From positions 3,209,213 to 3,273,212 of the forward strand of contig OZ253576.1 in NCBI GenBank assembly GCA_965262985.1: a stretch of 64,000 nt of DNA, in the 5' to 3' direction. This document shows, one piece after another, positions 7,828-38,314 of this stretch (positions within the stretch are counted from its first letter, which is position 1; each line of letters begins with the position of its first letter). Position numbers and translations under genes: made by a program. This DNA is from Vicinamibacterales bacterium. Its GTDB lineage: Bacteria > Acidobacteriota > Vicinamibacteria > Vicinamibacterales > UBA8438. A model generated the notes under the pieces. That model saw nothing but the letters and a program-made list of their open reading frames with translations, was not told where the DNA came from and ran no database searches.

Positions 7828-9129
7828 ATGGATATGCCAGCGACCTCTTCAACGATTGCTACGAATGTCTCGTTTTCGAGTTGGACAGGCGATAGGACAC
7901 CCAAGTCACTTGGGACCATTGCAGGATCGCCGCCGCTCGCCTTCCAGAACTGGCGGCGTATTAAGGAGGCATTTGCACCCGAATTGGTCGCGCGCGCTGT
8001 CGCCGAAACGACAGCTTCACTCGGAAGACCTGTAAGGACATGCATTGATCCCTTCGCCGGATCCGGAACTACTCCGCTGGCTTGCCAATTTCTTGGGGTG
8101 ATACCTACCGCAATTGAAGTAAATCCCTTTCTGTCCGATCTCATTGAAGCAAAGCTGACACCGATTGATGGTCAAGCGGTGGGAGCACGACTTGCGGAGA
8201 TTTTGGCCACGTCGAATGTACTTGATCCCGTGTCGTACTATCGTGGAGCTCCTCCTACTTTCGTGCAACCGGGTGTGAAGGGGAGGTATCTATTTTCACA
8301 TGACTTGGCATCACGAATAGCCAGCTTTCTTGACGCGATTTTGAACATTGAGGACATCCGGCTGCGGCGTTTTTTCCGCGTTCTTCTCGGCAGTGCAGCT
8401 ATTGAAGTTTGTAACGCCACCGTTAGTGGAAAAGGCCGACGATATAGACGCAATTGGGAAGCACGACAGTCGACACCTTCCGATTTGGACAATTTCTTTG
8501 CGAGAAGCGTACGGGCGGCCGTCTATGACTCTCTGAGATTTGCTGGTCGAAAGACGCTATCGTTCAGCCTCGTGAGAGGCGATGCGCTCCGGGCTCTAGG
8601 GACGATAGATGATATGGATTTAGCAGTATTTTCGCCGCCTTACCCTAACTCGTTCGACTATACAGATGTATACAATATTGAGTTGTGGATTTTACGATAT
8701 TTCACATGTTCCGAAGATAATACTCAATTACGGAAGTGCACAATGCATAGCCATGTACAGATCAAGCGGGAAATGGTTACCGGAACACCGCCCCCCATAG
8801 TTCAGGAGTCGATCGAAAGACTGCACATGGCACAAGGACTCTGGAACCCATGGATTCCGAATATGATCGGTGCCTATTTTGCCGACTTGACTTCGACAGT
8901 GAAAGAGCTGAAGCGTATGCTTCCCGACAAGGGGCGGGTGTACGCCGTGTTGGGCGACAGCAGATATTCGGGGGTTCATATTCCGGTGATTAATGGGTTC
9001 GCCGTTATAGCGTCCGAGCTTGGTTTTGATGTTGTATGTATTGAGCCCCTGGCATCGAAGCGAACGTCGCCACAACACGGCGGCCGTAGAGAACTTGGCG
9101 AGTCTTTGCTAACGCTGATGGCTCATTAG
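7828..9129 (+). CDS. DNA amino-methyltransferase (N6-A or N4-C), motif I before motif IV
   Basis: 433 aa. Motif I IDPFAGSGTTPL (~aa 74) and motif IV VFSPPYPNSFDY (~aa 270). ~50% GC. Its stop TAG 9127-9129 overlaps the convergent nuclease stop. Confidence 0.8.
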   Translation: MDMPATSSTIATNVSFSSWTGDRTPKSLGTIAGSPPLAFQNWRRIKEAFAPELVARAVAETTASLGRPVRTCIDPFAGSGTTPLACQFLGVIPTAIEVNPFLSDLIEAKLTPIDGQAVGARLAEILATSNVLDPVSYYRGAPPTFVQPGVKGRYLFSHDLASRIASFLDAILNIEDIRLRRFFRVLLGSAAIEVCNATVSGKGRRYRRNWEARQSTPSDLDNFFARSVRAAVYDSLRFAGRKTLSFSLVRGDALRALGTIDDMDLAVFSPPYPNSFDYTDVYNIELWILRYFTCSEDNTQLRKCTMHSHVQIKREMVTGTPPPIVQESIERLHMAQGLWNPWIPNMIGAYFADLTSTVKELKRMLPDKGRVYAVLGDSRYSGVHIPVINGFAVIASELGFDVVCIEPLASKRTSPQHGGRRELGESLLTLMAH

Positions 9130-9487
9130 GTGCCTGTTGCAACGGTAGAATCGCGCCATGCCCGTGGTGCATTGTAGATCGGCAACCGCACAACCAACAC
9201 TGCCTGAAGGTGCTCGCGGAGTTGCTCCGACAAGATGCCGGTGAGATCGTCCAATGGCGGTATCGCTACATCGAACAGCGCAAGGATGGCGAAGGGAAGG
9301 TCCAGGTCTTGGCGATAATGATATCCTTGGGAAAGCCCTTCCCGCGTGTCCGCCTTGTTCTTTGTTTCGGGTCCGCGAAGCACCTTGAGTTCGAGGACAC
9401 CCATCATGGTAGGGGCGCCAGTGGGACGTCTTTGCAAGAAGAGAAGGTCGCACCGACCGACATCTGTATTCGTTTGGCTCAGCACCT
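9126..9487 (-). pseudogene. 3' part of the split PD-(D/E)xK effector nuclease
   Basis: LSQTNTDVGRCDLLFLQRRPTGAPTMMGVLELKVLRG.. contains D-x19-ELK. It joins in frame to 12587-13264 once the IS21-like element is removed. The first 27 codons of track ORF 9126-9569 are IS-derived. Confidence 0.75.
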
Positions 9488-9537
9488 TGTTGGCGATCTC
9501 CAGGAACTGACGTTTTCTGCACCGCTGTCGACCGGGT

Positions 9538-10365
9538 TCATTGACGACGACGGGGTGGGTTGTCCCCATCTGGCGAGTCGTTGCGGCGCGGACGTCGTCG
9601 TTTGCGCTGCTGCTGGGTGAGTTCGGCCTCGCGCCGGCGATAGCTCCGACCTTCGACGAGGAGGATCTCGACGTGGTGAGTCAGGCGGTCGATCAGGGCG
9701 ACGGCGCAGGAGGCGTTGGGGAAGACGGTGTCCCAGTGCTTGAACGGCAGGTTGGTTGTGATGAGCAGGGAGCGGTGCTCGTAACGACGGCTGACGAGTT
9801 GGAAGAGCAGGTCGGCGGCCCGTGCGTCGTAGGCGAGATAGCCTACCTCATCGACCACGAGTAGTGATGGCCGCGTGTAGTGTCGGAGGCGTCGTTCGAG
9901 GGCTCGGGCCGTCTCCTGTCCGTTGAGGTTGAGCAGGAGGTCGGCGGCGGTGGTGAAGAGGGCGGAGTGTCCGGCGAGGATGGCCTGGTGGGCGATGTTC
10001 TTGGCGAGCATGGTTTTGCCGAGGCCCTGGGCCCCGACCAGGATGACGTTCTCGCCGCGGGCGAGGAAGTCGAGGGTGAGGATGCGTTCGAGGACGGGGC
10101 GGTCGAGGGCGGTCGGCCAGTTCCAGTCCCAGTCGGCGAGGGGCTTGAAGCGTCCCAATCGGGCGCAGGTGAGTCGGCGCTCGACGCTGCGGCGCTGTCG
10201 GTCTTCGAGCTCGGCGGCGACGAGGTGTTCGAGCAGCACGGTCGTGCTCCAGCGTTTGCGGGTGGCTGTGGCGACGAGGTCGTTGAGGTCGTCGGCGGTG
10301 CGATGGCATCCGAGTCGGCGGAGGTCAGTCGCCAGCGTCGTCGGGGGTGTGTCGTCCGAGGGCAT
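9538..10365 (-). CDS. istB: IS21-family helper ATPase IstB
   Basis: Walker A LVGAQGLGKTMLA and Walker B LLVVDEVGY. The internal ATG at 10365 overlaps the istA end. Confidence 0.85.
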   Translation of the reverse strand: MPSDDTPPTTLATDLRRLGCHRTADDLNDLVATATRKRWSTTVLLEHLVAAELEDRQRRSVERRLTCARLGRFKPLADWDWNWPTALDRPVLERILTLDFLARGENVILVGAQGLGKTMLAKNIAHQAILAGHSALFTTAADLLLNLNGQETARALERRLRHYTRPSLLVVDEVGYLAYDARAADLLFQLVSRRYEHRSLLITTNLPFKHWDTVFPNASCAVALIDRLTHHVEILLVEGRSYRRREAELTQQQRKRRRPRRNDSPDGDNPPRRRQ

Positions 10366-11827
10366 CGTAGGTCTCCAGGTCGTGGGGCCGGACGTCGAGG
10401 TCTCGCAGTCCCGGGCGGTCGGGCAAGGTAAGCCGGAGCGGGGGTTTGAGTCCGCGCTGTCGCCGGCGCGTTTCGAGGATGTGGGTGATGGAGCCGGCGC
10501 CGAGGGCGTCTCGTTGGAGGGCGTGGTCGACGGCGGCGGCGAGTTCCTGCGGCCCGTAGTCGTCGAGCAGCGCGAGCAGCCTGGTGCCATGCGGTCGCAG
10601 CGCCTCCCCGCGTTCTGCGAGCCGTTCGAAGAGGGTGGCGGTGGCGGGGACGGCGGCGCGGAGCCGGTCGCGGGTGGTGTGGACGTTGGCCTGGCGGGTG
10701 GCGGCGAGCAACCCTTCCAGATGCGCGGGGTCCTCGACGGTCTGTCCGGTGTCGTAGGTGCGGCGATGGCGGGCGAGCTCGGTCTGCTGGTCGAGGATGC
10801 GGACGCGGGTGTCGCTGGCGAGCAGGGTCAGGGGCTTGCGGACGTGGGTGTGGGGGATGGAGTAGAGATTGCGGTCGAAGCGGACGTAGGGGGTCTTGCC
10901 GGAGCGGACGACGCGCACGAGGTCGGTCTCGAAGGGATGGGCGGGGAGCGGCAGGAGGCGGGGCTGCTCGTCGGCCCAGACGTCGGCGACGGTGCGGTCG
11001 GGCATCTCGGGGTGGCGTCGTTGGTGGGCGACCTCGTCGCGCCAGCGTCGGAACTGGGCGTTGAGGTCGTCGAGGTCGCGGAAGGGCCGGGCGGCGAAGA
11101 AGGCGTGCCGTAGGTATTGGATCTGCCTCTCGATTTTTCCCTTCTCATTTCCGCGTCCCGGCGTGCAGGGGCGGGGCGCGAAGTGGTAGTGGCCGGCGAG
11201 CTCGAGCAGGCGGGGGTGAAACTGGACGGCGGTACCGCGGCGGTCGAGCACAGCGCTGCGCAGGTTGTCGTAGACGAGCGTGCGGGCGATGCCGCCCAGG
11301 GCCTCGAAGGCCTCGACGTGTCCGCGGAGGAAACTCTCAAGGGTCTGGTCGAGGGTGAAGAGGGCGGCGATGGCGCGCGAGTAGCCGAGGACCATGACGA
11401 ATCCGGAGACGGCGCGTGTGCCGTGTCCGATGCGAACCTTGCCGAAGGAGCCCCAGTCCACTTGACCTTGCTCGCCCACCAGGGTGACGACGCGGCGGTA
11501 GACGGTGCGGGTGGACTCGGGCCGCAGGCGCCGCACGAGGCGGCGGACCTGGATGACCGAGCCCGGGTAGCCGCGCTGGCGGACCATCTCGTGGATGCGG
11601 GTGGCGCGCAGCCGGGGGTACTGGGCCAGGGTGTCGCGAATGAACGGCAGGTAGGGGTCGAGGGCGGTCGGCCGACACACGCCGCCCCGGACGCTTCCCG
11701 ACGCGTGCTCGACCGCGGCGCGGACCGTCTCACGGTGGAGGCCGAGTTGAGCGGCGATGGTCCCGAGCTTCCAGTGCTCGCTGTAGTACAGGCGCCGGAT
11801 CTCGGCGCGCTGCGCGGGCGTGATCAT
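10325..11827 (-). CDS. istA: IS21-family DDE transposase IstA
   Basis: 500 aa. N-terminal HTH MITPAQRAEIRRLYYSEHWKLGTIAAQLGLHRETV, followed by a DDE core. Confidence 0.85.
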   Translation of the reverse strand: MITPAQRAEIRRLYYSEHWKLGTIAAQLGLHRETVRAAVEHASGSVRGGVCRPTALDPYLPFIRDTLAQYPRLRATRIHEMVRQRGYPGSVIQVRRLVRRLRPESTRTVYRRVVTLVGEQGQVDWGSFGKVRIGHGTRAVSGFVMVLGYSRAIAALFTLDQTLESFLRGHVEAFEALGGIARTLVYDNLRSAVLDRRGTAVQFHPRLLELAGHYHFAPRPCTPGRGNEKGKIERQIQYLRHAFFAARPFRDLDDLNAQFRRWRDEVAHQRRHPEMPDRTVADVWADEQPRLLPLPAHPFETDLVRVVRSGKTPYVRFDRNLYSIPHTHVRKPLTLLASDTRVRILDQQTELARHRRTYDTGQTVEDPAHLEGLLAATRQANVHTTRDRLRAAVPATATLFERLAERGEALRPHGTRLLALLDDYGPQELAAAVDHALQRDALGAGSITHILETRRRQRGLKPPLRLTLPDRPGLRDLDVRPHDLETYDALGRHTPDDAGD

Positions 11828-12203
11828 CGTTCCTCCTTCCCCGCACGACGCGAGGCTCCCGCATCGGGGTCAGCCACCGGCTCGATCGGCCGCAGACCAC
11901 GCATCGCGTGGCCGCCGGAACCGGGGCGGCGTCAGGGACGGGGAGTCTGTCCGATGGCGGGGGTGCGGGGGAAGTGTGATCCGTCACGCGCCGCCGGGCG
12001 CGGTAGGCGCGCTGCCGGTCGCGGTGGTCGAGACGTCCTTCCAGACTGCGCTGATGACGAGCGTTGGCGGCTCGAACGCACCGGCGACGACCGGCCGTCC
12101 GGCACGGCGACGTGCAGTAGGCATGGCCGCGGTCACACGCCGCGCAGACGGCGAAAAGACGGCTGCACTGGCGACAGGTTCTCTGGCGGAGGGGCTGGTC
12201 CAC
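11730..12203 (-). CDS. Cys-rich (zinc-finger-like) accessory ORF inside the IS21-like element
   Basis: MDQPLRQRTCRQCSRLFAVCAACDRGHAYCTSPC...RCVVCGR. Lies upstream of istA and overlaps its first 98 nt. Whether it is coding is uncertain. Confidence 0.35.
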   Translation of the reverse strand: MDQPLRQRTCRQCSRLFAVCAACDRGHAYCTSPCRTAGRRRCVRAANARHQRSLEGRLDHRDRQRAYRARRRVTDHTSPAPPPSDRLPVPDAAPVPAATRCVVCGRSSRWLTPMREPRVVRGRRNDDHARAARRDPAPVLQRALEARDHRRSTRPPP

Positions 12204-12586
12204 GGCGTCGGAGCGCGCAGGGCGATCTCCGACTGGACAACGAGCCTGAACCGTGGCACAACAGCAGGGACCGGCTCGGTCTGTCGGAGCTCGGGGCGGT
12301 CACGAGGGTCCGGTGGGCAAACCGGGCCCTCACCCCACGTCTGAGTCCGCTCCCTACGCTACCCGAACGCCGTGCCCACCGCCAGCGCCGGGGCCGTGGA
12401 CGCCGCCGCTCCCATGGACGCACAGAGCGCGCCCACCGGAGCTTGGAAAACCGCGTGGGCGCGGTTTCCCACAGCGCCCACCGCCATCATCTTCATCTTC
12501 CTCAAGATCCACACGAAAAGACCGGTGCCCGAGCCGAGCGCACCGACGAGTGTCGAGAATTTGTCACTATCTCGCGATCGTTGACA

Positions 12587-13264
12587 CACCTTAATGGGTC
12601 TCTGGCGACCAAGAAAAAAAGTTGTCAACTGACCCTTGATGTGCCGCTCCAGCTCATCTTCAGCTCGTTCGACTAGTGTCAGCTTGACCCAGAGCCTCGC
12701 CGTGTGGGCACTTGGGGTCTTCAAATTCTCTTCATAGGCGATTGTAAGAGCAGAGTTTACCTCGTCGCGTGTCAAATCGGTGTCGACGACGTTAATCGGT
12801 TTGCGAATGTGGTCGTCTGGCGAAGCAACGCCAGAGGGATATATCGTAGCAACACTACTCTTGGGGTCCCAAATAACCGTAGGCCGTTCATGCAGCGACA
12901 TTTCCTCCAATTCCTCCATTATCCGATTGGGCGAAGCCTGGCTGCACAACCGGCTCATGCCATTGTTGACATCTTGATTGGTTGCCACGATGTAACCGGA
13001 CAATTCCCCATAACCGTCTTGCATATGGGCAATACGAGAGAATCCCAGTTCGATCGTGTCGGGTCGGGGCGCTTCGCTGTAGACGAAAGCGCACATGGAG
13101 GAGAGGTCCGACCGGCGGGTCGCCGCCCTGATGCTGTTGATCACAAACCTCTCAGGAGGGTCAAATTCGTCAGGGACGGTATCGAGATCCTGTGAAGCGA
13201 CGAGCGCGATAATATCGTTGCGAAACGGGCTAGGTTGAGACTGGATCGGGGAGGCGTCAGCCAT
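12587..13264 (-). pseudogene. 5' part of the split effector nuclease (unknown N-terminal domain)
   Basis: 226 codons ending ..FFLGRQRPIKV exactly at the IS end. The remaining 76 codons of track ORF 12359-13264 are read-through into IS DNA. Confidence 0.75.
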
Positions 13265-13934
13265 TTGCCGCCCTTTTCAGATACTTAACGTAAAGATGTA
13301 CTTTCGCTGTGGGCGACAATCGTGCTTCCCCGTCGCCGAATGCGTGTACCGCAAGCTCCTCGATGCTGTCGGCACCCAAAGTGGAATAGTTCTGCGCTCG
13401 CCATTCCGCGTAATCAATTACCGCCCCGACATGGCCGGAATCCCATGTGACATCCAGCTTGGTGACGGCGTCCAGTTCGGTGTCCTGAATATTGCTCAGG
13501 GCCCCCGCCAATTCTCTAAAATAGTCTCGAAGGACGGACAACTCGTCCTGAGAGTAAACGACGTCGAGTACCGGTGAAGAACGGGCTCGTTGAAGGGTCA
13601 GAGAATAAGTGACGTAGGCTTGGGACTCTTCGACAACCGGAGCCAGATCATGAGGAGTAACCAGGTCAAGGCCGATCAGGCGGTCGATTTCCCACTGCAG
13701 ATCGGGGAAATACGGGAAAGATCGCCGCTTCAAGATCTTTCCGGACATGGGAACGAGACGGAATATGGGACTGAGTACATCCGCCAAAAAAGCAAGCGTA
13801 TGAAAGCGCTGCACGGAGATCGGGGCGAGTACCGCATAGTCGACAGCATCCAGGAGCATCAAGACGCGAACGCGGCGGCGCACTTGCATACCCTGCGATC
13901 CTAGCCATTCGGCCAAATCCGCATCGACAGTCAC
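13257..13934 (-). CDS. 'middle component'-like protein of the ABC ATPase system
   Basis: 225 aa, no recognisable motif. Its GTG start overlaps the ATPase stop (GTGA). Its stop overlaps the effector start (ATGGCTGA). Confidence 0.6.
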   Translation of the reverse strand: MTVDADLAEWLGSQGMQVRRRVRVLMLLDAVDYAVLAPISVQRFHTLAFLADVLSPIFRLVPMSGKILKRRSFPYFPDLQWEIDRLIGLDLVTPHDLAPVVEESQAYVTYSLTLQRARSSPVLDVVYSQDELSVLRDYFRELAGALSNIQDTELDAVTKLDVTWDSGHVGAVIDYAEWRAQNYSTLGADSIEELAVHAFGDGEARLSPTAKVHLYVKYLKRAANG

Positions 13935-15721
13935 AAGCCCGGTTCCTCTTCTCCGTGTGGCGGAAACAAGGCGCGATTCAGGAGATGGTCATAGCGATCA
14001 CCGATAATTTGAACTGCACTTGTTGGAGCCGCGATCTTCAGCAAGTCAATGACCCGGCTCCACCGCTGGTCCCGGGGAATGGCGAGCGGGTTGGGATCGC
14101 CAACTTCCGCGTTGTACGCCCCAAATAGCGCAGGGATCATATCGGCGTTGGTCAGATTCGAGGTCACAATCAGGCGGTTGTCGACATGATGTTCTGAGAA
14201 GCGCGCAAGGAAAGCGCCTGCGCGACGCATGAACAACGCATCGAGGCTTGCCTCCGGTGCGTCGAAAATAAGTGTCGCCGGGCCGTTGGCGACTGCGACT
14301 TCGACCAGTGCCAAGCGAAACGCGAGGTCAATGAACTCGCCTTGGGACATCGAGACCTCAGAGCGATCCAGCCGCGGGGAAGGATTGTCGAAGGTTCCGG
14401 ATGTCATGCTCAGTCTGAAGGCAGGCCATTCATAGCTCTTGCCGCTTTCTCCGATTGGGGCGCGAGTAGTGGTGAACGAGATTTCGGCGCGTTCCAGAAG
14501 GAATTCAGAGATTCGCTCAGAAAAGCGCTCTCGGATTTGGTCGGCGAGATCGTTGATTGTCTCCTGATACTCAAGAAATATTGAAGAAAACGCCCTTTCT
14601 GCGTCATCCTGTTCGGACTTCAGTTCTGCAAGTGTTTGATCTTGGCTGGCAACACGCTCTTCCAAAGAGCGAAGCTCGGGCGGGGTTGGAGGCAGTGAGC
14701 CGGCTATTTGCCGGACACGGGTTTCGTTGGTGCGACGTTCAATCAGGAGTTGGTCGATTTGTGCCTGAACCATGTCGTAGGCGGATTGCTTGGCTTCGAA
14801 TTCCTTCTGCGCGGTTTCCAAAGCCTGGCGAGCGCTGTTCAGCCGACCTTCCACTCGCGAGATACGTGCCGCGTCGATGGCTGCTGCGGGAATTATGGCT
14901 TCCTGATATTTCGGGGAGGCACCGCAGACAACGCAGTCTCCATCGGTTACGGCGGCAACCCACCGAGCAATCAATGGACCATCATCGGCACCGCAGACCA
15001 AGCAGGATTTGTCTCCGAGTAGACGATCGACGACATATCGGCCAGCGTCGGGCGCCGACGGGAAAGTATTGGCAACGCGCGTTAGTTTCAGCGCCTCCAA
15101 TTCACGTAAGTAGTCGTCGACATTGAATTTCGCGACCTCCAGAGTGGTGCGGAATTCGGTTCTGGCGTCGTCGGCTTGACCGCGCAGTTCATATAGTTCG
15201 CTAAGGCGTTCGGCCTGTGCGGCGATCGCCTCCTGCAAGGTATGGTATTCGGCGCTAAGGGAATCGGCGGCTTTTGACGCCACGCTTGCCCGCTTCAGTT
15301 TCCTCTTGTTACGGTTGGCGATGTACAAGAGGTTACGGTAGGCACTGTTGCAAGTAGCAACCTTTTGCGCACGATTAGCCAGTGCCTTGGCCTTTTCGGG
15401 CGACATGAACAGGGCGCGCAGAACGTTACGTTGCGCTAAAGGGGTCCATATAAGGAGGCTCCGTTCTTCAAACATGAAGACAATGAGATTTAGCAAGATA
15501 AGCACATCCGCGAAACTGCTTACGCGCATGGCAGAGGTGACCGCGGATTTGTAGCTGTCTTCGTCGACGGGTTGAGTAGAGTCATTCAATGACCACTCGA
15601 TGATCGACAAGTCATGAAGTGACCTGCAGACTGTAAATTCGTCTGAGCCAAGTGCAAATCGTAATTTCAAACGAGCAGCCCGGGCGCCGTCAGCCACACG
15701 TTTGCGAAATCGATCCGTTAG
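13931..15721 (-). pseudogene. 3' part of the split SMC-like ABC ATPase
   Basis: Long coiled coil interrupted by CLVCG-x21-CVVCG. C-terminal ABC signature VSMSQGE, Walker B ATLIFDAPEASLD. The first 13 codons of track ORF 13931-15760 are IS-derived. Confidence 0.8.
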
Positions 15722-17186
15722 CAGCCCGTGGTGAAAGTCCCCCATTCCAGGGATCGACATGATCGGTCCTGTGTCCTACACTGTCGTGCATGGCGATGGG
15801 GACAAGCCGCGGTCGAACGCGGCAAGCGACGATGTGGGTGCCCACGGCGGATCTGCCGAAGAGCGCGGGGCACCCGTTTTACGAGCGGCTGAATCGGGTG
15901 CTCGACGAGGCGGGGTTCGATGCGTTCGTGGAAGCGCAGTGCGCATCGTTCTACGCGGACGGGGTCGGTCGGCCGAGTCTGGCGCCGGGCCGGTATTTCC
16001 GGCTGCTGTTGCTCGGCTACTTCGAAGGGCTGGATTCGGAACGGGCAATCGCGTGGCGCGCCGCCGACTCTCTGAGCATTCGCACGTTTCTGGACTTCGC
16101 CCTCCACGAGGCCCCGCCGGACCACTCGACGCTGTCGCGCACCCGTCGCCTGATTGACCTCGAGACCCACCAGGCGGTGTTTACCTGGGTGTTGCAGCGA
16201 CTGGCCGACGCCTCGCTGGTGGTGGGGCGCACGGTGGGGATCGATGCCACGACGCTGGAAGCCAATGCGGCGATGCGGAGCATCGTGCGACGGGACACGG
16301 GCGAGAGCTACGACGCATTTCTGACCCGGCTGGCCGAGGCGTCCGGCCTCTCGACGCCGACGCGCGCCGAGTTGGCCCGGTTCGACCGGACCCGCAAGAA
16401 GAAGGGCTCGAACGCGGACTGGACCCACCCGCACGATCCGGACGCGAAGATCGCCAAGATGAAGGACGGCCGCACGCATCTGGCGCACACCGCCGAGCAT
16501 GCGGTCGACCTGGAAACAGGCGCCATCGTGGGCGTGACGGTGCAGGACGCGAGTGCGGGCGACACGACGACCCTGGTCGACACGCTCGTCACGGCTGCCG
16601 AGCAGGTCGAGGCGGTCGGCGCGCCGGGGATCGCGGAGGTCGTGGCCGACAAGGGGTATCACAGTAACGAGACGATGGTCGGGTTTGCGGCCATCGGCGT
16701 CCGCAGCTACGTCTCGGAGCCGGACCGCGGCCGACGGCACTGGAAGGGCCAGGCGGCCGCGCGGGACGCGGTGTATGCCAACCGCCGGCGGATCCGAGGC
16801 GCACGCGGGAAACGGCTGCTGCGGCAGCGGGGCGAGCTGGTGGAACGGCCCAACGCGCATCTCTACGAGACCGGCCGGATGCGCCGCGTCCATCTGCGCG
16901 GGCATCCCAACATCCTGAAACGGCTGCTCGTGCAGGTCTGCGGCGTCAATCTCGGGTTGCTCATGCGGCACCTGACGGGCGTCGGCACGCCGCGGAGCCT
17001 CCAGGGCCGCGCGGCGGCGCGTCTGGGCGCGCTGATCGGCCTCCTGAGCGGCTGCTGGGGGCGTGTGCGGCGCTTCTGGGCCCCGGAGCGCCATGATCGG
17101 CCCGATTCGTCGTGGGATGGTCCGGCGACACGCCAATACGGACACGCGATTCTCGATTGACAATCAGCCCCTTCTGCCACGGGCTG
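15722..17186 (+). mobile_element. IS5/IS1182-family insertion sequence, 1465 bp
   Basis: Terminal inverted repeats CAGCCCGTGG / CCACGGGCTG. 4-bp TSD TTAG at 15718-15721 and 17187-17190. Confidence 0.85.
15790..17160 (+). CDS. IS5/IS1182-family DDE transposase
   Basis: 456 aa. N-terminal InsH-type block GRPSLAPGRYFRLLLLGYFEGLDSERAIAWRAADSLSIRTFL, then a DDE domain. Confidence 0.85.
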   Translation: MAMGTSRGRTRQATMWVPTADLPKSAGHPFYERLNRVLDEAGFDAFVEAQCASFYADGVGRPSLAPGRYFRLLLLGYFEGLDSERAIAWRAADSLSIRTFLDFALHEAPPDHSTLSRTRRLIDLETHQAVFTWVLQRLADASLVVGRTVGIDATTLEANAAMRSIVRRDTGESYDAFLTRLAEASGLSTPTRAELARFDRTRKKKGSNADWTHPHDPDAKIAKMKDGRTHLAHTAEHAVDLETGAIVGVTVQDASAGDTTTLVDTLVTAAEQVEAVGAPGIAEVVADKGYHSNETMVGFAAIGVRSYVSEPDRGRRHWKGQAAARDAVYANRRRIRGARGKRLLRQRGELVERPNAHLYETGRMRRVHLRGHPNILKRLLVQVCGVNLGLLMRHLTGVGTPRSLQGRAAARLGALIGLLSGCWGRVRRFWAPERHDRPDSSWDGPATRQYGHAILD

Positions 17187-17430
17187 TTAGGCGGTGAGGC
17201 ACAACATCCGGTCGGGGAACCCCATATTCATCATTTCTAATCGAAGCGGGTCCTACCACGCCATGATAGAGAGCCAATAGTAATGTGGATTTACCAAGCC
17301 CATTGACCCCGGCAACTAAATGCAATCCCGGACTAAAGGTGTGGGATAGCCCTGGACTATGTTCGTCACCGGGGAACATTTGGTAGTCATCGATAGCAAC
17401 CTGGCGGTAAATGGGCAGACAGATCGTCAT
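17187..17430 (-). pseudogene. 5' part of the split SMC-like ABC ATPase
   Basis: MTICLPIYRQVAIDDYQMFPG...GLHLVAGVNGLGKSTLLLAL (Walker A). Joins in frame to 15717 downward after IS removal. Confidence 0.8.
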
Positions 17431-17837
17431 TGTGTGTAGTGTCCGGTCGGGTATGGCTTGGCCATGGTAAGTTGCGACAATGGAGATTGGCAACGGGAAT
17501 GGGCGGGATGGATTTCTACATTTTGCCTGTCGAAGAGAAGGTCATACTTCGTGCAATGGAGTATCAGGTCCGTGGAGGTGTGTATGCGCCGGCGCCCACT
17601 TGGCTGGATAGCCTGGATTCGGGTCGGCAAGGAAGCGATGGCCGACAATGGGCATTGGGCCAAGACTGAGGCCAGGGAGCGTGAGCTGAATGGTTCCATG
17701 CATGGCTCGTCGAAGTCCGTGGCCGTAGTGCAACGAGAATTGGCGCCGGCGTCAACCGTGTTCGGAGCGGGACTGGTCCCGGCGGTGGTCAGGGACGGCG
17801 GGCCCAGCAGGTTCCGTTTGCGAAGCCAGATGCCCAT
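17427..17837 (-). CDS. doubtful small ORF upstream of the ATPase
   Basis: Its stop overlaps the ATPase start (ATGA), but the composition is not convincingly protein-like and the start is uncertain. Confidence 0.2.
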   Translation of the reverse strand: MGIWLRKRNLLGPPSLTTAGTSPAPNTVDAGANSRCTTATDFDEPCMEPFSSRSLASVLAQCPLSAIASLPTRIQAIQPSGRRRIHTSTDLILHCTKYDLLFDRQNVEIHPAHSRCQSPLSQLTMAKPYPTGHYTQ

Positions 17838-17993
17838 TCAGGTGCGCGACCGCGCCGGGCACCCGGACGGCCCTCGGCCGCCAGGAGGCTAAGGGGCCGG
17901 TATTGGCGGCGCCGGTATCGGCATCGGCACCAACCGGCACGACCGGGCCGGTGTCGACCGTGAGCTCGGCCACCGGCCCCCAGTTATGGGTCT

Positions 17994-18419
17994 GACGATT
18001 GACGATATTAGAGCACCCCGATCACCAAGACTCCTCATCCCGCGACAGGCGGATTGACCACACCGTCACGCAGATAGCCCCCGTCACGGGAGGATTACCG
18101 CCTGACTGAACACGTCGGGCCTAGAATGACCGCTCGTCAGGCCGAGGTCAAGGCCAGATGCGCGTGATGGAAGCGTACTTCAGGTGTGCTGACGGGGCAG
18201 AGAGGGGAGTCAGGCGGGGTCGTCGACGCAGAACTCGTCGGACGCGTCAGACTGAGGCGCGCCGTCGAGGAGCAGTGCCGGCGGCGCGCGTGCCGGCCGC
18301 GCCTCGGGGACCTCGGTTGGCAGCTCCAGGTGCTGCAACATGCGCCCAATGACGGCGGGATCGTCGATGAGCGCGATGAGCGTGAGCCGCCCGCCACATC
18401 GGGGACAGGCGTGGTGGAA
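17994..18419 (-). mobile_element. IS91-family element remnant, copy C (terminus + transposase C-terminus)
   Basis: 157-bp conserved terminus 17994-18150, near-identical to 31957-32113, followed by the transposase 3' end. Confidence 0.75.
18210..18419 (-). pseudogene. IS91-family (Y2/HUH) transposase, C-terminal 69 aa only
   Basis: [47 protein letters not shown].. Confidence 0.65.
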
Positions 18420-18750
18420 GCGGACGCGGCCCACGCACTGGCTCCTCCCGGGGGCTCGTCCGGCCCGACCGATCAGCCGCAGCGCGGTGGAACAGGAATG
18501 CCAGCACGCGCGCCGGCGGTGCCGGATTCCCAAACCCATTACCCCGCATTCCCTACGGCATGCCTTCGCCGTCCACTTGCTTGAAACCGGCACCGACGTG
18601 CGCACGATTCAGCTCCTGCTCGGGCATCGCGGTCTCGCCACCACGGCGCGCTATCTGCGCATCGCCACGACGACGGTCTGCTCGACCACCAGCCCGCTCG
18701 ACTTGCTCCCACGGCCCCTTCCGCCGGCCGCCCGACTCCCCACGCCGTAG
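18409..18750 (+). pseudogene. tyrosine recombinase, C-terminal fragment
   Basis: [55 protein letters not shown] aligns with residues ~180-289 of the E2 recombinase. Confidence 0.75.
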
Positions 18751-18768
18751 CGCGTCTGAGGGGGCGAG

Positions 18769-19932
18769 GTGCGCATGGATCGGCCGAAACACGCCGTGGC
18801 GGACGTGTTCCGCCGCTACGGCGACACCTTCGGGCCCAGGCGGGAGCCGCGCTCTTGACGGTGTCAACGGTCATTCAAAACTCCCCCACCTGCGGTCATC
18901 GAAAATTCCCCCACCCCTGGTTGATCACAACGATGAGACGAGTGCCGGTGGGCGCTGTGGGCATACACGCGTCTGGTACAACAGTTGTCGCAATCGACAT
19001 TGCGCGACCTGCCAATCGCTGGCGCGCGCCGCGTGGATCGAACAGCGCCAGGCGGAGATTCTCGACTGTGACTACTTCCACGTGGTGTTCACCGTGCCCG
19101 ACGCGATCGCCGAGATCGCGTTGCAGAACAAAGCCGTCGTCTATGGCATCTTGTTCCGCGCCACCGCCAAGACGCTCCGGACGATCGCGGCCGACCCGAC
19201 CCATCTGGGCGCCGAGATCGGGTTCTTTGCCGTCTTGCATACGTGGGGGCAGACCCTGATGCACCATCCCCATCTGCATTGCGTCGTCCCCGGCGGCGGC
19301 CTGTCCCCAGATGGCACCCGTTGGATCGCGTGCCGGCCCGGCTTCTTGCTGTCGGTCCGCGTCCTCTCGCGCCTGTTCCGACGGCTGTTTCTCTCAGATC
19401 TCCAAAAGGCGTTCGACGCGGGGCGCCTGCACTTCGCGGCGTCACTCGACGCCCTGACCGAGCGCCAGGCTTTTGCCGATTTCCTGACACCGGTGCGCCA
19501 GACCGACTGGGTCGTCTACGCCAAGCCGCCGTTTGCCGGGCCGCAACAGGTGCTTGACTACGTCGGTCGCTACACCCATCGGATCGCCATCTCCAACAAT
19601 CGGTTGCTGGACATGGAGGCGGGCCAGGTTCGATTCCGCTATCGGAAATACCGGGCGAACCGGTCCCAGATGCACGCCACAATGACCCTCACCGCAACGG
19701 AGTTCATCCGACGGTATCTCCTGCACGTTTTGCCGACCGGGTTCCACCGGATTCGCTACTACGGCTTCCTCGGCAATCGGCACCGCGCAGAGAAGCTGGC
19801 CCTCTGCCGGCAACTGCTCGGGACGGGATCGACTCCAGCGCCCCCCAGCGAGTCCCCGCCACCTCCGGACTATCGTGACCGCTACGAGTCCCTCACCGGG
19901 ATCTCCCTGCACACGTGTCCCGTCTGTCACGA
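18769..19932 (+). pseudogene. Y2/HUH 'IS91-family' transposase of E1 (multiple lesions)
   Basis: The N-terminus VRMDRPKHAVADVFRRYGDTF stops at 18856-18858. A 70-bp foreign insert (18861-18930) replaces the Cys-cluster region. The rest is in another frame (HHPHLHCV; YVGRYTHR). It is cut at ..CPVCHD by E2. Confidence 0.75.
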
Positions 19933-20117
19933 TGTCAACGATCGCGAGATAGTGACAATTGGACTAAACCGCTTCGCGGTAGACGCTGAATCGACCTGCC
20001 GACCCTGAGGCGGCCAGCCAGCCAGATCGTCCGGCCGCTGCAGCTCGTCCGCCGTCTCGCCGTACGCTGCTCTGCAAGCGCCTGGAATCCCCCGGGCCCT
20101 TCGCAGAGGAGCGTTCC

Positions 20118-20987
20118 ATGACATCTCTTCGTCAACGCATGCTCGAAGACATGCAGGTGCGGCAGCTGTCGCCGTGCACCCAACAGACATACGTCGAGAC
20201 CGTCGCGCGGTTCGCCCGCCACTTCGACCGTTCCCCGGCTCGTCTCGGCCCGGAGGCGATCCGCGCCTACCAGGTCTACCTGACCAACGAACGCCGTCTT
20301 GCGCCGAGCTCGGTCGTCGTCGCCGTGTCGGCGCTCCGTTTCCTCTATCGGGTCACGCTCCGGAAACAGTGGGTCTTCGACGACGTGATCCCCGTACCGA
20401 AGAAGCCCCGGTCCTTGCCGGTCGTGCTCAGCCGCGACGAGGTGGTGCAGTTCCTCGACGCCGTCAAGGCCGCCAAGCATCACGCCATCCTGACCACGTG
20501 CTACGCCGCCGGCCTCCGCGTCTCCGAGGCCATCCATCTCGCCGTGTCCGCCATCGACAGCCACCGGATGGTGCTCCGCATCGAGCAGGGCAAGGGGAAG
20601 AAGGACCGCTACGTGATGCTCTCGCCGAAGCTGCTCGAGGTCCTGCGCGCCTGGTGGCAGGTCGACCGGCCCCGGCATTGGCTCTTTCCCGGCGAGCGCC
20701 CGGAGAAGCCCATCACTCGCAAGGCGGTCCAGCTTGCCTGCCAGCGCGCCGTCCGACGCGCGAAGCTCACCAAGCCGGTTTCTCCGCACGCGCTCCGCCA
20801 CGCGTTCGCGGTCCATCTCCTCGAGGCGGGCACCGACCTCCGTACGATTCAGCTGCTGCTCGGGCATCGGAGCCTGCAGACCACGGCCCGCTACCTGCAG
20901 GTCGCCACCAGCACGGTCTGTTCGACCGCCAGTCCGCTGGACCTCCTCCCGCGGCCTGTAGGGAAACCGAACCCGGACATCGCCTGA
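20118..20987 (+). CDS. tyrosine recombinase (phage-integrase family)
   Basis: 289 aa. ..AGLRVSE.. / [37 protein letters not shown] (R..HxxR..Y). Confidence 0.85.
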   Translation: MTSLRQRMLEDMQVRQLSPCTQQTYVETVARFARHFDRSPARLGPEAIRAYQVYLTNERRLAPSSVVVAVSALRFLYRVTLRKQWVFDDVIPVPKKPRSLPVVLSRDEVVQFLDAVKAAKHHAILTTCYAAGLRVSEAIHLAVSAIDSHRMVLRIEQGKGKKDRYVMLSPKLLEVLRAWWQVDRPRHWLFPGERPEKPITRKAVQLACQRAVRRAKLTKPVSPHALRHAFAVHLLEAGTDLRTIQLLLGHRSLQTTARYLQVATSTVCSTASPLDLLPRPVGKPNPDIA

Positions 20988-20996
20988 GCGACGGTC

Positions 20997-22208
20997 GTGC
21001 CACGCGCCGCGCTCACCGTGGCGGAGGTCTTCCGCCGCTACGGTGACACCTTCCGGGCTCAGGCCGGGGCCGCCCTCTCGACGGCGCAGCGTCGGGTGAT
21101 GACGGCCATCGAGCAGTGCCGCACCGCCGCACTCGGCGGCCACGTCGAGCAGTGCGACCGTTGCGGCCATCGCCGCGTCTGGTACAACTCCTGTCGCAAC
21201 CGCCACTGCCCGACCTGTCAGTCGCTGGCCCGCGCCGCGTGGCTCGAACGGCGCCGGGTGGACCTGCTTCCCACCGAGTACTTTCACGTCGTCTTCACCG
21301 TCCCTCCGGCGGTCGCCGAGATCGCCACCCAGAACAAGGCCGTCGTCTACGGTCTCCTCTTCCGCGCCGTCGCCGAGACGCTCCGCACCATCGCCGCCGA
21401 CCCTCGCCATCTCGGCGCCGAGATCGGCTTCTTCGCCGTCCTCCACACCTGGGGCCAGACGCTCGTCCATCACCCGCATCTGCACTGCGTGATTCCGGGT
21501 GGGGGGCTCGCAACCGATGGCAGCGGGTGGGTTGCCTGCCGCCCCGGGTTCTTCCTGCCGGTCCGGGTCCTGTCACGCTACTTCCGTCGGGTCCTCCTCC
21601 ACGCGCTGCAGGACGCCTTCGAGTCCGGAAAACTGGGCTTCGCCGGTCGGCTGCAGGCCCTCAACGACCCCCGGCGCTTCGCCGAGCACCTCCGCCCGGC
21701 CCGCGAGGCCGAATGGGTGGTCTACGCGAAGCGACCCTTCGCCGGTCCCGAGCAGGTCCTCGACTACCTCGGCCGTTACACCCACCGGATCGCCATCAGC
21801 GACCAGCGCCTGTGCAGCCTCGACGACAGCTGCGTGCGCTTCCGCTACAAGGACTATCGTCGGGCCGGCGCGTCCCGCCACAAGACCATGACGCTGACGG
21901 CGACCGAGTTCATCCGGCGCATGCTTCTCCACGTGCTCCCGCCCGGCTTCCACCGCATTCGCTACTACGGCTTCCTCGCCAATCGCAACCGGCAGCAGAA
22001 GCTCTCCGAGTGCCGGCGGCTGCTGCACGCGCCCCCGCTACCATCGGCAGAGCACGCCGGTCCCGCCACAATCGACTACCGGGATCGCTATGAGGCGCTG
22101 ACCGGCCGCTCGATGCGGCGGTGTCCCCGGTGCGACGACGGAAACATGCTCGTCGTCGACCACCTCGCCGGCAGGTGCGTGGCGCCCGCCATCCTGGATT
22201 CCTCGTGA
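20997..22208 (+). CDS. Y2/HUH transposase (IS91-family type)
   Basis: 403 aa. Zn-binding CDRCGH..CRNRHCPTC, HUH motif HHPHLHCV, tyrosine pair YLGRYTHR. Confidence 0.85.
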   Translation: MPRAALTVAEVFRRYGDTFRAQAGAALSTAQRRVMTAIEQCRTAALGGHVEQCDRCGHRRVWYNSCRNRHCPTCQSLARAAWLERRRVDLLPTEYFHVVFTVPPAVAEIATQNKAVVYGLLFRAVAETLRTIAADPRHLGAEIGFFAVLHTWGQTLVHHPHLHCVIPGGGLATDGSGWVACRPGFFLPVRVLSRYFRRVLLHALQDAFESGKLGFAGRLQALNDPRRFAEHLRPAREAEWVVYAKRPFAGPEQVLDYLGRYTHRIAISDQRLCSLDDSCVRFRYKDYRRAGASRHKTMTLTATEFIRRMLLHVLPPGFHRIRYYGFLANRNRQQKLSECRRLLHAPPLPSAEHAGPATIDYRDRYEALTGRSMRRCPRCDDGNMLVVDHLAGRCVAPAILDSS

Positions 22209-22569
22209 CGACTCCACCAACGCCCCGCCAGGCAAACCTTCGAAGCTCTCGGTGTGCCGGGGTCGGTCGACCTGTGTCTCCGACTCCTCACCACGGCCGC
22301 GGGACCGCCTTCGTGGACATCCCCACCGGCCCCGTCGGCCGGCAACGACCACCTACAACACCGTGGCAAGCACGCCGCCAGCGCCTCCCGACCATGCAAC
22401 GCCCATAGCCGAGCAGCGGAGCAGCGGTTCAGTCCAATTCATTCTTAGCTCACCGGCGCGGTCACACGCCTTGCCACTTGCCCGCTGTTTGCCGCCGCGC
22501 CGCCAACCTAAGAATGCTCTGCATTATGACCAACTGGACATAATGATCAGTTTCTGGAGATCGCCAACA

Positions 22570-22640
22570 GTCACGACGGGCATATGATCGTGGTCGAGGA
22601 CCTGCCGCGTCCGCGCCCCGCGATCACCGATACCTCCTGA
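22570..22640 (+). pseudogene. 3' tail of the E1 transposase, displaced by E2
   Basis: After removing E2 and one TSD copy: ..CPVCHD|GHMIVVEDLPRPRPAITDTS*, parallel to the E2 copy ..CPRCDDGNMLVVDHLAGRCVAPAILDSS*. Confidence 0.75.
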
Positions 22641-23179
22641 CACCATGACACCCGCGCGCGCCCACCACGCGGTCGCACCGGCGCCCGGCACGCGTCACCG
22701 AACTCGTGTGTCTGCACCCCGCGTCACACAGCCACAGGACTGTCCTCGCGTCCCCAACGCCGCTCTCGCCGATGCCTACACGCGGTCGACCCCGCAGCCG
22801 GTGGCACGCTCGACCCGCGGCGAGGTGCCGAGCCCCACGCGACCATCGACACCGACCGCCATTCAATCCCCATAGCGGAGCGTCTAGCCAGCGTTTTAGC
22901 CCAATCTGATCAACGACAATTATTTTGGCCGAGACACCAAAGTAGTTGACGTTGAACAAACGGGCGACCTGGCTGCATGCGATCCGGACGGCATCGCCGC
23001 TCCCAACTCGCGATTCTAGACGGCCCACTCTCCCGACGAATCACCGTCATGTGTGCGCTGCCACGGGCAACCGTGATAATCACCGAATAACAGCGTGACT
23101 CGTCGTCGAAGCGCCCCGTGACCGTTCGTCGTCTCGGCGGCCCACGCCTAGCCCGGATTATTCATGAAGGCCGCGAGTC

Positions 23180-30939: not shown

Positions 30940-31171
30940 GCATGCTAATCGATCAAAGATCCAAGATCAAGGGGCTACACGGGGGCACAAAGGGCTACGC
31001 ACCGAAAACGGGCAGATCGGCGGATGTAGGCTCCGAGGCGTGCGAACGCGGGTCGGGCGACGTAGCGGCAGTCCGAGGTTGCTGACGGCCGCCTCGATGA
31101 GCACGGGTTGCCCCTATTGCACAAATTGACGTCCTCAACCATCGTAGCCGTGAGGGCCACCGTCTTGCCAG

Positions 31172-36792: not shown

Positions 36793-36850
36793 TGCAGCAA
36801 TCCTCGTTGGGTTCGGCCTGACTCAGGGCGGCGAGCTTCGAAAGCAGACG

Positions 36851-37115
36851 AACAGGGCAACCACAAGGGTTGCCCCTATATCTCACCTTGCTCAGAACAG
36901 GGCAACCACAAGGGTTGCCCCTACATCTCACCTTGCTCAGAACAGGGCAACCACAAGGGTTGCCCCTACATCTCGCCTTGCTCAGAACAGGGCAACCACA
37001 AGGGTTGCCCCTACATCTCGTCTTGCTCAGAACAGGGCAACCACAAGGGTTGCCCCTACATCTCGCCTTGCTCAGAACAGGGCAACCACAAGGGTTGCCC
37101 CTACTTCTCGCGTTG
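36851..37115. repeat. six tandem 45-bp REP units inside the gcd operon
   Basis: Units start at 36851, 36896, 36941, 36986, 37031 and 37076. Consensus AACAGGGCAACCACAAGGGTTGCCCCTACATCTC(A/G)CCTTGCTCAG. Each unit folds as GGGCAACC-ACAAG-GGTTGCCC. Confidence 0.9.
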
Positions 37116-37156
37116 CCACGCGGGCGCCTCGCCACGCTCGGTTTCACCACGGGCTC

Positions 37157-38314
37157 CTAACGGTTCGACGTGTGACCGCAGGCCATGCCGGCGATGATGA
37201 GCTTCTGCACGTTGGAGGTGCCCTCGACCACCTGCAGCGACTTGGCGTCGCGATACAGCCGCTCGGCCGGGTATTCGGTCGAGTAGCCGTACGATCCGAA
37301 GATCTTCATGCACTCGTTGGCCGCATGGACCGCCGCTTCCGACGCCTGCAGCTTGGCTATCGACGTTTCGTACTGGTTCGGCTTGCCGTGGTCCTTCAGC
37401 CACGCCGCGCGGTAGACGAGCAGTTGGGCCGCATGGTGCTCGACCGCCATCTCGGCGATCTGCGCCTGCACCATCTGATGCCGTGAGATCGGCTTCCCGA
37501 ACTGGGTGCGCTCGTTGGCGTAGTCGACCGCCGCGTCGAGCGCCGCCCCGGCCACCCCCAGCGCGCCCGCGGCACACCCGAGACGGGTGTTGTTGAGCTG
37601 CCACATGCAGATCTTGAATCCGTCGCCCTCGCGCCCCAGCAGCGCATCTTTCGGCAGCGCCGTGCCGTGGAACGCCATCTCGCCGGTCGGCGCGCAGTGC
37701 AACCCGAGCTTCGTCTCGATGTCGGTCGCCACGAAATTGTCCACCAGCTTGGGTTCGAGGATGAAGGCGCTCATTCCCCGGTGCTTCTTCTCCGGGTCGG
37801 TCATCACATAGAGCAGCCCCGCGTCTCCCTGGGTCGCGTTCGACACCCAGATCTTGCTCCCGGTCAGCTCCCAGTGATCGCCCCGGTCACGCGCCAGCGT
37901 CTTCATGCTGGCCACGTCGGAACCGCTCTCGGGCTCGGTCATGCCGAAGAACCCGATCTTCGTGCCCGCCACCCAGCCCGGGATGAACTTCCGTTGCTGC
38001 GCGTCGGTACCGAACCTGGCGACGGTCAGCGCCGGCCCGAGATTCTGCATGTTGAACGGGAGCCGCCAGGATGCCGACACCTTGGCAATCTGCTCGGCCA
38101 TCAACACCGACTCCATGAAGCCGAACCCGGCGCCCCCGAACTCCTCGGGCACGCCGCACGAAAAGAAGCCCAGCTCGCCCATGCGGGCCACGCGGTCGAG
38201 CCTGAACTCATGGCGCCGCTCTTCCTCGGCCATGGTGGGGGCGATGTCGTTCCGCGCGAACTCGCGCGCGGTCTCCTGCACCAGTTGCTGTTCGTCGGTC
38301 AACTCGAAATTCAT
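37157..38314 (-). CDS. acyl-CoA dehydrogenase
   Basis: MNFELTDEQQLVQETAREFARNDIAP... ..GMTEPESGSDVASM.. ..YRDAKSLQVVEGTSNVQ.. Internal ATG at 38314. Confidence 0.85.
   Translation of the reverse strand: MNFELTDEQQLVQETAREFARNDIAPTMAEEERRHEFRLDRVARMGELGFFSCGVPEEFGGAGFGFMESVLMAEQIAKVSASWRLPFNMQNLGPALTVARFGTDAQQRKFIPGWVAGTKIGFFGMTEPESGSDVASMKTLARDRGDHWELTGSKIWVSNATQGDAGLLYVMTDPEKKHRGMSAFILEPKLVDNFVATDIETKLGLHCAPTGEMAFHGTALPKDALLGREGDGFKICMWQLNNTRLGCAAGALGVAGAALDAAVDYANERTQFGKPISRHQMVQAQIAEMAVEHHAAQLLVYRAAWLKDHGKPNQYETSIAKLQASEAAVHAANECMKIFGSYGYSTEYPAERLYRDAKSLQVVEGTSNVQKLIIAGMACGHTSNR

Follow-up and report, generated by a model that had tools for sequence, protein, structure and literature searches.

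The stretch of DNA analyzed here, which we call the window, comprises 64,000 nucleotides of contig OZ253576.1 (positions 3,209,213 to 3,273,212) from a Vicinamibacterales assembly (GCA_965262985.1). It carries two mobile elements, E3 and E2, that end in the same sequences and enclose different genes. E3 is an insertion sequence (IS) of the IS21 family, encoding IstA and IstB. E2 is a composite in which a 72-bp miniature element with IS21-type ends surrounds an IS91-family element; its interior holds only a gene for a Phage_integrase protein, followed by one for a Zn_Tnp_IS91 and Y2_Tnp protein, and no cognate IS21 transposase. Both sets of genes are as named in the initial annotation, which had been made from the sequence alone. 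The features of the two elements are listed below, with IRL and IRR for the left and right terminal inverted repeats, TSD for target site duplication, ORF for open reading frame and RIT for recombinase-in-trio; loci outside the window are given L numbers.

9488..12586, minus strand: E3, autonomous IS21-family insertion sequence, 3099 bp (same-length copies elsewhere; TSD CACCT)
12561..12586, minus strand: IRL of E3, TGTCAACGATCGCGAGATAGTGACAA (sequence match, end alignment)
9488..9510, plus strand: IRR of E3, TGTTGGCGATCTCCAGGAACTGA, with the istB stop codon 28 bp away (sequence match)
10325..11827, minus strand: istA, 500 aa (NCBIfam IS21 transposase; Pfam rve, Mu-transpos_C_2)
9538..10365, minus strand: istB, 275 aa, overlapping istA by 41 nt at 10325-10365 (NCBIfam IS21 helper ATPase; Pfam IstB_IS21)
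11730..12203, minus strand: Cys-rich ORF in the 760-bp IS leader, start codon uncertain (kept open in relative L056)
9483..9487, second copy 12587-12591, no strand: TSD of E3, CACCT (direct repeats)
19933..22569, plus strand: E2, 2637 bp, an IS91-family element inside a 72-bp IS21-type miniature element (copy comparison)
19926..19932, second copy 22570-22576, no strand: TSD of E2, GTCACGA (direct repeats)
19933..19958, plus strand: left arm of the miniature element, 26/26 against the IRL of E3 (sequence match)
22547..22569, minus strand: right arm of the miniature element, 22/23 against the IRR of E3 (sequence match)
22524..22543, no strand: 20-bp palindrome of the miniature element, TTATGACCAACTGGACATAA, a RIT-type site (comparison with RIT ends)
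19959..22525, plus strand: IS91-family element, net insertion 2565 bp, TT at both junctions (same limits in L001, L004b, L005 and L094-L100)
20118..20987, plus strand: integron-like tyrosine recombinase, 289 aa (Pfam Phage_integrase, Phage_int_SAM_4)
20997..22208, plus strand: Y2/HUH transposase, 403 aa (NCBIfam IS91 family transposase; Pfam Zn_Tnp_IS91, Y2_Tnp)
22440..22516, plus strand: long hairpin at the right, presumed origin end, just inside the terminus ...CTCTGCATT (single-stranded DNA fold)

The likeness of the ends of E3 and E2 is close and sharply bounded. The IRL sequence TGTCAACGATCGCGAGATAGTGACAA occurs exactly twice in the window with no mismatch (26/26), at 12561-12586 on the minus strand and 19933-19958 on the plus strand, and the IRR sequence TGTTGGCGATCTCCAG(G/A)AACTGA also has two matches, at 9488-9510 (plus) and 22547-22569 (minus), identical at 22 of 23 positions. 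Dinucleotide-preserving shuffles of the window, used as the chance expectation, gave no match to either, and a repeat search recovered both pairs. When the four ends are aligned, it is apparent that the likeness between E2 and E3 ceases directly after 26 nt at the IRL and 23 nt at the IRR, while IRL and IRR are imperfect inverted repeats of one another (16/23 positions). Direct repeats bracket both elements, CACCT at 9483-9487 and 12587-12591 for E3 and GTCACGA at 19926-19932 and 22570-22576 for E2. Removal of E3 with one repeat copy in silico yields a single 348-aa ORF spanning the junction, and removal of E2 restores the C-terminus of an older Y2 transposase (...HTCPVCHDGHMIVVEDL...), parallel to E2's own ...RCPRCDDGNMLVVDHL... 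The shared ends, the flanking repeats and the repair of both host ORFs upon excision had all been proposed initially, and each is borne out.

On sequence criteria E3 is a bona fide IS21-family element, active-looking and apparently active in the recent past. IstA scores 269.7 bits against NCBIfam NF033546 (cut-off 160) and IstB 233.8 bits against NF038214 (cut-off 200), and the hallmarks of the family are present: TGT...ACA termini, imperfect terminal inverted repeats, a 5-bp TSD within the 4-8 bp of the family, and an istB ORF that directly follows and overlaps istA. Copies were located by exact-protein look-ups and by a scan of species-representative genomes for a degenerate end pattern; the look-ups, which covered both E2 and E3, returned only L001-L007 and L101 (the same contig as L002). 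Full-length 3099-bp copies with 94-100% identity lie in L007, L011, L015, L038, L046 and L049. E3-type ISs are also carried by the long-read metagenome contigs L006 and L007, occupy at least eight sites in the chromosome of one Vicinamibacterales metagenome-assembled genome (MAG; OZ244838.1) and recur in other Vicinamibacterales MAGs. Complete copies have TSDs of 5, 5, 4, 6 and 5 bp, with none at L038, and all share an unusually long leader of 760 bp before istA. The Cys-rich ORF of this leader (...RTCRQCSRLFAVCAACDRGHAYCTSPCR...) lies upstream of the istA start and overlaps it; it is open in the 86%-identical relative L056, the substitutions between the two being biased to third codon positions, and may represent a third gene in this clade of IS21 elements. 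No Pfam family matched this or the other small ORFs of the leader. One copy, in L006, is 100% identical to E3 from nt 7 onward, has CCCGCG in place of TGTCAA as the first six IRL nucleotides (9242-9247), lacks a TSD and sits ~8 kb downstream of cas4/cas1 and cas2 genes.

IstA relatives from other metagenomes, with 46-91% identity (90%, 58% and ~50% among them), carry the same IRR type, TGTTGGCG[A/G]TCGCGAG[A/G]AA[G/C]TGA, directly downstream of istB. Because this end type accompanies istB in the relatives, the shared ends are native to the IstA lineage, in agreement with their initial description as IS21-type. The converse, in which the outer ends belong to the recombinase-plus-Y2 family and E3 is a chimera with a captured istAB module, has the shared ends themselves in its favor and nothing further, and we consider it extremely improbable. 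The IRR type persists beside istB down to 46% identity of IstA, the IS is constant at 3099 bp in many copies, the arms exist by themselves as a 72-bp unit and around a RIT element (see below), and IS91-like copies of identical or 85%-identical sequence occur without the ends (L004b, L003 and L094-L100).

When the 2565-bp net insertion is subtracted from E2, exactly 72 bp are left: the 26-nt IRL, TTATGACCAACTGGACATAA, TGA and the 23-nt IRR. This shell has two IS21-type arms around a 20-bp palindrome (TTATGACCAGCTGGTCATAA) that E3 lacks, and contains no internal IS sequence. Free 72-bp copies are found in three other assemblies, namely a Vicinamibacterales MAG (L044, TSD GTCACAG, 7 bp), a Terriglobia MAG (L052, CACGT, 5 bp) and a Joint Genome Institute (JGI) metagenome contig (L066, no TSD). 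In end-to-end alignment the length is 72 bp in every case, whether in E2 and its counterpart L002 minus their cargo, in a RIT composite of L004 after recombination of its palindromes, or in the three free copies. The composites too are flanked by TSDs, of 7 bp in the window and of 6 bp both at L002 (CCTTGC, an unrelated locus) and around the L004 RIT composite (ACCAAG). The IRL-like arm of the L044 copy, TGTCAACGGTCGTCAAAAACTGA, matches at 22/23 positions the variant IRL of L046, an IS copy of the same MAG with a 6-bp duplication. The shell is accordingly a lineage of miniature inverted-repeat transposable elements (MITEs) that co-evolves with the IS.

The initial annotation had taken the shell for an E3-like IS21 element that lost istAB. 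That reading gives way to one of a discrete 72-bp element, since only the 23-26-nt arms are shared, the palindrome is absent from the IS and free copies exist; its description of E2 as structured like a non-autonomous, IS21-ended cassette with a target duplication stands. It had also raised the unequal TSD lengths of E2 and E3 as a caveat. The inequality is real, but as an objection it is softened by the overlapping ranges of 4-6 bp for IS copies and 5-7 bp for miniature-type copies. The search for further shells also gave L047, where an IRR and a RIT-type end motif are followed by no recognisable genes, and L013, which was rejected as a new cargo because its IRL stands alone, flanked by ordinary genes (SpoIIM/RDD and FtsX/MacB). 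A metagenome scan for the IRR plus the palindrome start (GCGATCKCCAGRAASTGANNNTTATG) gave no match; a broader end pattern in metagenomes gave 41 loci, mostly chance matches or IS21 relatives, plus the MITE-like copies L066 and L070.

The cargo of E2 is, judging from its copies, an independently mobile IS91-like element with fixed limits. The Y2 transposase, which has an N-terminal zinc-binding domain, scores 444.8 bits against NCBIfam NF033538 (cut-off 125), and the best NCBIfam match of the recombinase is the integron integrase, at 187 bits and under the cut-off of 265. An identical recombinase is encoded on five contigs (L001-L005), and comparison of E2 with these places the limits of the element at window positions 19959-22525 (TTGGACTAAACC...GCTCTGCATT). 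The same inner limits are seen in copies without IS21-type ends, both close (L004b, at L004 9842-12408, 99.7% identity, and the truncated copy in L003) and diverged (L094, L095 and L098, 82-86% identical, and L100, 74%). Because copies occur elsewhere without them, the outer ends are not native to the recombinase-plus-Y2 element. The case entertained initially, that such elements always carry these ends, is contradicted by L004 9842-12408, L003, L095 and L100. The subgroup is very abundant, with >8000 relatives at E below 1e-50.

Within these limits the element has a 16-bp subterminal inverted repeat; the inner repeats described by the initial annotation were found at 19957-19972 and 22424-22439. 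The DNA outside the inner repeat, put at 103 bp and regarded as extra, measures 107 bp, and 86 of these (22440-22525) belong to the IS91-like element and are present in every copy. They include the hairpin at 22440-22516 (z = -3.05 on the plus strand and -2.93 on the minus strand), which lies near the right end as expected beside a rolling-circle origin. Junctions at eight sites share only T or TT (in E2, GACAA-TT-GGAC...GCA-TT-ATGACC), with no other duplication, and a circular form of the element would have the junction ...CTCTGCA-TT-GGACTAAACC... A model in which the junctions share a longer, att-type core (GCATTATGGCCGGAT) was dropped, as the simpler T/TT overlap fits all junctions.

IS91 inserts beside a GTTC/CTTG tetranucleotide. 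The right flanks here are ATGACC, ATGGCC, ATGGAA, ATCGGT, CAAGCT and CGCGAG, with no such tetranucleotide next to the insertion. Independent insertions are found at the outer edge of TTATG...CATAA-type palindromes: that of the MITE in the E2 type, TTATGGAAAGCTTTCCATAA in L094, a site between a RIT spacer and TATGTCCCGCAGGACATA in L098, and the RitC-side end of a RIT in L003. Compared with other IS91-family elements that have an integron-like recombinase, the E2 cargo is set apart by its T/TT at both junctions, its 16-bp subterminal inverted repeat and its recurrence at palindrome edges. The left flank is variable, with CCGG-rich sequence recurring in L004b, L095, L003 and L098, and L001 and L005 show a variant IRL within a larger duplicated unit that looks like an IS91-type read-through past the left end, taking neighboring DNA along. 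L005, otherwise the same locus as L001, has a group II intron (RVT_1 + GIIM ORF, ~1035-2985) 3 nt inside the left end of the element.

The same shell also surrounds a cargo of another kind. At L004 3693-7208 the IRL (26/26) and IRR (22/23) enclose a RIT element, with the ACCAAG duplication outside; its three adjacent tyrosine-recombinase genes, ritA-ritB-ritC, overlap by 4 nt and encode products of 417, 312 and 332 aa, all Phage_integrase or Xer-like. A second, diverged RIT adjoins an IRR in L036. On either side of the L004 RIT lies a copy of the 20-bp palindrome, the two in direct orientation, which is the outcome expected of conservative site-specific integration; recombination between these copies would leave exactly the 72-bp MITE. 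The RIT ends, inverted relative to each other, are built of repeated TTATGAC(A/C)AGC motifs; the palindrome consists of two such motifs in inverted orientation, laid out 7-6-7 as arm, spacer and arm in the manner of a tyrosine-recombinase core site. In L003, an 86%-identical RIT without IS21-type arms has the palindrome at its own tip. The palindrome is thus presumably a RIT recombination site.

In the Terriglobia and JGI MITEs the palindrome is of another type, TTATGTTG[T/A]GCAC[G/A]ACATAA; this type (in the Terriglobia copy L052, TTATGTTGAGCACAACATAA) agrees with TAATGTTGAG, the motif at the tip of a second RIT lineage, seen in L017. This lineage has a perfect 34-bp inverted repeat and lies within the istB gene of a related IS21 element in L017 (2076-5628) and L024 (Vicinamibacterales MAG CBDCCY01). 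Since the second palindrome type matches a second RIT lineage, IS21-type arms and RIT-type palindromes go together in more than one case. The RITs in L017 and L024 are flanked by copies of GTCGAT and have an extra 16-18-bp palindrome (ATGTTGAGCTCAACAT) of the tip motif on one side. A sequence of 26-28 nt (CTCGGTGGACACCCAAATCCGGCCAG), which we refer to as X, abuts the RIT-type palindrome in L003 (6376-6401), in L001 (~12410-12437) and in the right flank of the IS91-like element of L098. X sits where the MITE has its IS21-type arm, and similarity decays directly outside it. Another type of shell may end in X, or X may be where that RIT lineage truly ends. A reading of X as a diverged IS21-type arm was rejected (9/26 matches by eye, not significant).

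When these results are taken together, we think it likely that an E3-type IstA/IstB pair acting in trans inserted the MITE, and that the IS91-like element then entered the edge of its palindrome by means of its own recombinase or transposase. Insertion of the MITE by E3-type IstAB is suggested by its TG...CA ends, its 5-7-bp duplications and its arms, which are identical to those of the resident IS. In the first step, the 72-bp MITE (26-nt IRL, 20-bp palindrome, 3-nt spacer and 23-nt IRR) would have landed in E1, an older IS91-like element, within its Y2 gene, and generated the 7-bp target duplication; the only plausible mover is an E3-type IstA/IstB pair recognizing the two arms. In the second, a complete IS91-family element would have entered by its own machinery, using the TT that separates the IRL arm from the palindrome. 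The MITE would in this way be a landing pad for recombinase-bearing elements, which are perhaps carried along whenever IstAB moves the shell.

The initial annotation had favored another reading, in which E2 is a mobile insertion cassette (MIC) that transposes as one unit with the IstAB of E3 supplied in trans; L002 and L019 would then be further products of such transposition. The comparison of E2 with L002 bears directly on this. Across the IRL and the 2567-bp cargo (2593 bp) there are no differences, whereas the 44-bp right part of the shell holds four, a placement with P ~8e-8 if the differences fell at random. Shell variants with a TCA or CAA spacer also occur with RIT cargo (L036 and L004) and as a free MITE. 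Identical cargo in differing shells fits independent, site-selective insertions into two existing MITEs better than movement of E2 as a unit, because a recent move would have copied the shell too; each shell variant is found with both cargo types; and the preference of the IS91-like element for palindrome edges outside the MITE as well explains the recurrent identical junctions. For the single-unit reading speak the intact arms, identical to those of the IS, the perfect TSDs that enclose the entire composite at each of two unrelated loci, and the size of E2 (2.6 kb), near that of the IS (3.1 kb); the TSDs, however, are expected whichever event came first. L019, an E2-like copy without a TSD, has only one difference in the 49 nt of its arms at 12.8% divergence. 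Lasting selection of the arms for transposition would account for this, as would a young MITE. We consider it rather unlikely that E2 and its relatives arose by transposition as a unit. As the composite keeps intact arms, it may nonetheless be mobilisable, and IstAB could plausibly move E2 as a unit.

A further alternative is that another transposase, such as that of a second IS21-family element with similar ends, moves the MITE and its composites, or that these are immobile relics, their flanking repeats going back to one old event. The TSDs of MITE-type copies are longer on average than those of the IS, further IS21-family ends lie in the same regions (window 18863 and L002 8063), and the IS21-family element IS5376 requires a two-repeat end in vitro. 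Set against this, the arms match the resident IS at 26/26 and 22-23/23 and co-vary with the local IS (L044 against L046), the site and TSD of the 72-bp element differ from genome to genome, and the IS copy L046 itself has a 6-bp TSD. We regard this alternative as improbable.

Several observations weigh against insertion of the MITE by E3-type IstAB followed by entry of the IS91-like element at the palindrome. The MITE arms span only 23-26 nt, whereas IS5376 IstA in vitro requires a pair of direct repeats in each 55-bp end, and its duplications are always 5 bp long (PMC10122671). IS21-family ends have two or more direct repeats each (L1/L2, R1/R2); when the terminal 26 nt of the IS and its relatives were aligned locally with the next 84 nt, second terminal repeats (L2/R2) scored no better than shuffles. 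The TSDs of MITE-type copies tend to exceed those of IS copies by 1-2 bp (5-7 against 4-6 bp), and three copies, L019 (E2-like), L038 (IS) and L066 (MITE), have none. Three to four of ~10 independent sites of the IS91-like element lie away from palindromes, L004b, L095 and L100 among them. The window locus offers a single allele from which to read the order of events, and the case for IstAB as the putative mover of the MITE or E2 is built on sequence. Observed directly are the structures themselves, their TSDs and their copies elsewhere, the equality of the shells at 72 bp and the preference of the IS91-like element for palindrome edges; we infer, rather than observe, the movement of the MITE or composites by IstAB, the order of the events and the choice of target by a protein of the IS91-like element.

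It is possible, if doubtful, that the 72-bp element is a dedicated docking platform, its palindrome an attB-equivalent core site for RITs and a preferred target of the IS91 subgroup with an integron-like recombinase. If so, recombinase-driven elements would load into and unload from an IS21-ended shell, riding on IstAB transposition. Such a three-layer parasitism would be in keeping with the constant 72 bp in two Acidobacteriota classes and with the match of different palindromes to different RIT lineages.

Non-autonomous elements with IS ends are of an already known kind, an example of a MIC being MIC231, related to IS231 of Bacillus cereus. Like MICs and MITEs, E2 places the terminal inverted repeats of an autonomous element around DNA without a cognate transposase, with target duplications and presumed mobilization in trans. 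It differs in having a shell of constant length, 72 bp, that derives from the two-protein IS21 family, and in that the cargo is a complete foreign element, IS91-type or RIT, that enters a defined palindrome site rather than being trapped between two ends. Mosaic non-autonomous transposons are also built by Tn3-derived TIMEs (PMC4133298).

The IS21 family (E3) and the IS91 family (the cargo) are likewise known. As in IS21 and IS5376, E3 pairs an IstA DDE transposase with an IstB AAA+ helper in overlapping genes between TG...CA termini, and it shares 5-bp duplications with IS5376 (PMC10122671); unlike them, it has a 760-bp leader with a conserved Cys-rich ORF, no detectable L2/R2, and TSDs of 4-7 bp across copies and derivatives. 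An IS91-family subgroup with an accompanying integron-like tyrosine recombinase has been described (bioRxiv 10.1101/542381), and the E2 cargo resembles it in its zinc-binding Y2/HUH transposase after a simple integron-like recombinase, in the lack of a multi-base duplication and in the hairpin downstream of the transposase. RIT elements have the order ritA-ritB-ritC (PMC3414803, PMC10214605), and their mobility was called undemonstrated in 2012 (PMC3414803). The RITs found here agree with them in their 4-nt overlaps and in terminal inverted repeats built from a repeated 10-11-nt motif, and the 34-bp repeat of L017 matches the length given in PMC10214605. Unlike known RITs, that of L004 stands between direct 20-bp palindromes inside IS21-type arms with a 6-bp TSD, and a one-palindrome "empty" form exists.

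A literature search returned no report of an IS21-type MITE that carries RIT or IS91 elements or serves as their defined insertion site. What is new is an IS21-type shell of fixed length (72 bp), with a RIT-type site at its center that two unrelated recombinase-bearing elements use. These loci offer a candidate RIT recombination site, for which both an integrated form and an empty form of 72 bp are predicted, and a candidate target rule for the IS91 subgroup (T/TT on the edge of TTATG...CATAA palindromes). The 23-26-nt arms would be a natural minimal substrate for IS21-type transposases, and the whole illustrates the stacking of mobile elements in IS-rich islands of soil Acidobacteriota.

The surroundings of E2 and E3 contain the following further features.

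18409..19932, plus strand: E1, left part, an older, decayed IS91-like element with ~68% aa identity to the genes of E2 (comparison)
18863..18950, plus strand: end fragment left by another IS21-family element, TGTCAACGGTCATTCAAAACTCCCCC...GGTCATCGAAAATTCCCCCAC, containing two direct sub-repeats and lying in the Y2 gene of E1 (sequence reading)

E1 resumes at 22577 and runs beyond 22906. The IS21-end remnant replaces ~100 bp of its Y2 gene, and the same end type occurs at L002 8063-8120. The gene interrupted by E3 (9109-9487 and 12592-13264, minus strand) encodes a 348-aa protein that matches no Pfam family; it adjoins unannotated ORFs of 225 and 609 aa and a weak DNA-methylase match, and this neighborhood may, from its gene content, be a defence-type island. 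Other mobile elements in this IS-rich region are an IS4-like element at 23146-24923 (DDE_Tnp_1_4 transposase; 25-nt inverted repeats at 23146 and 24899) and an IS5-like element at ~15700-17190 (DUF772 + DDE_Tnp_1). A repeat family of 56-157 nt has four copies in the window, at 1078, 6028, 17990 and 31953, and a tandem array at 36805-37161 with a 45-bp period consists of six to seven CAAGGGTTGCCCCTACATCTCGCCTTG-like units, with one related copy at 31102.

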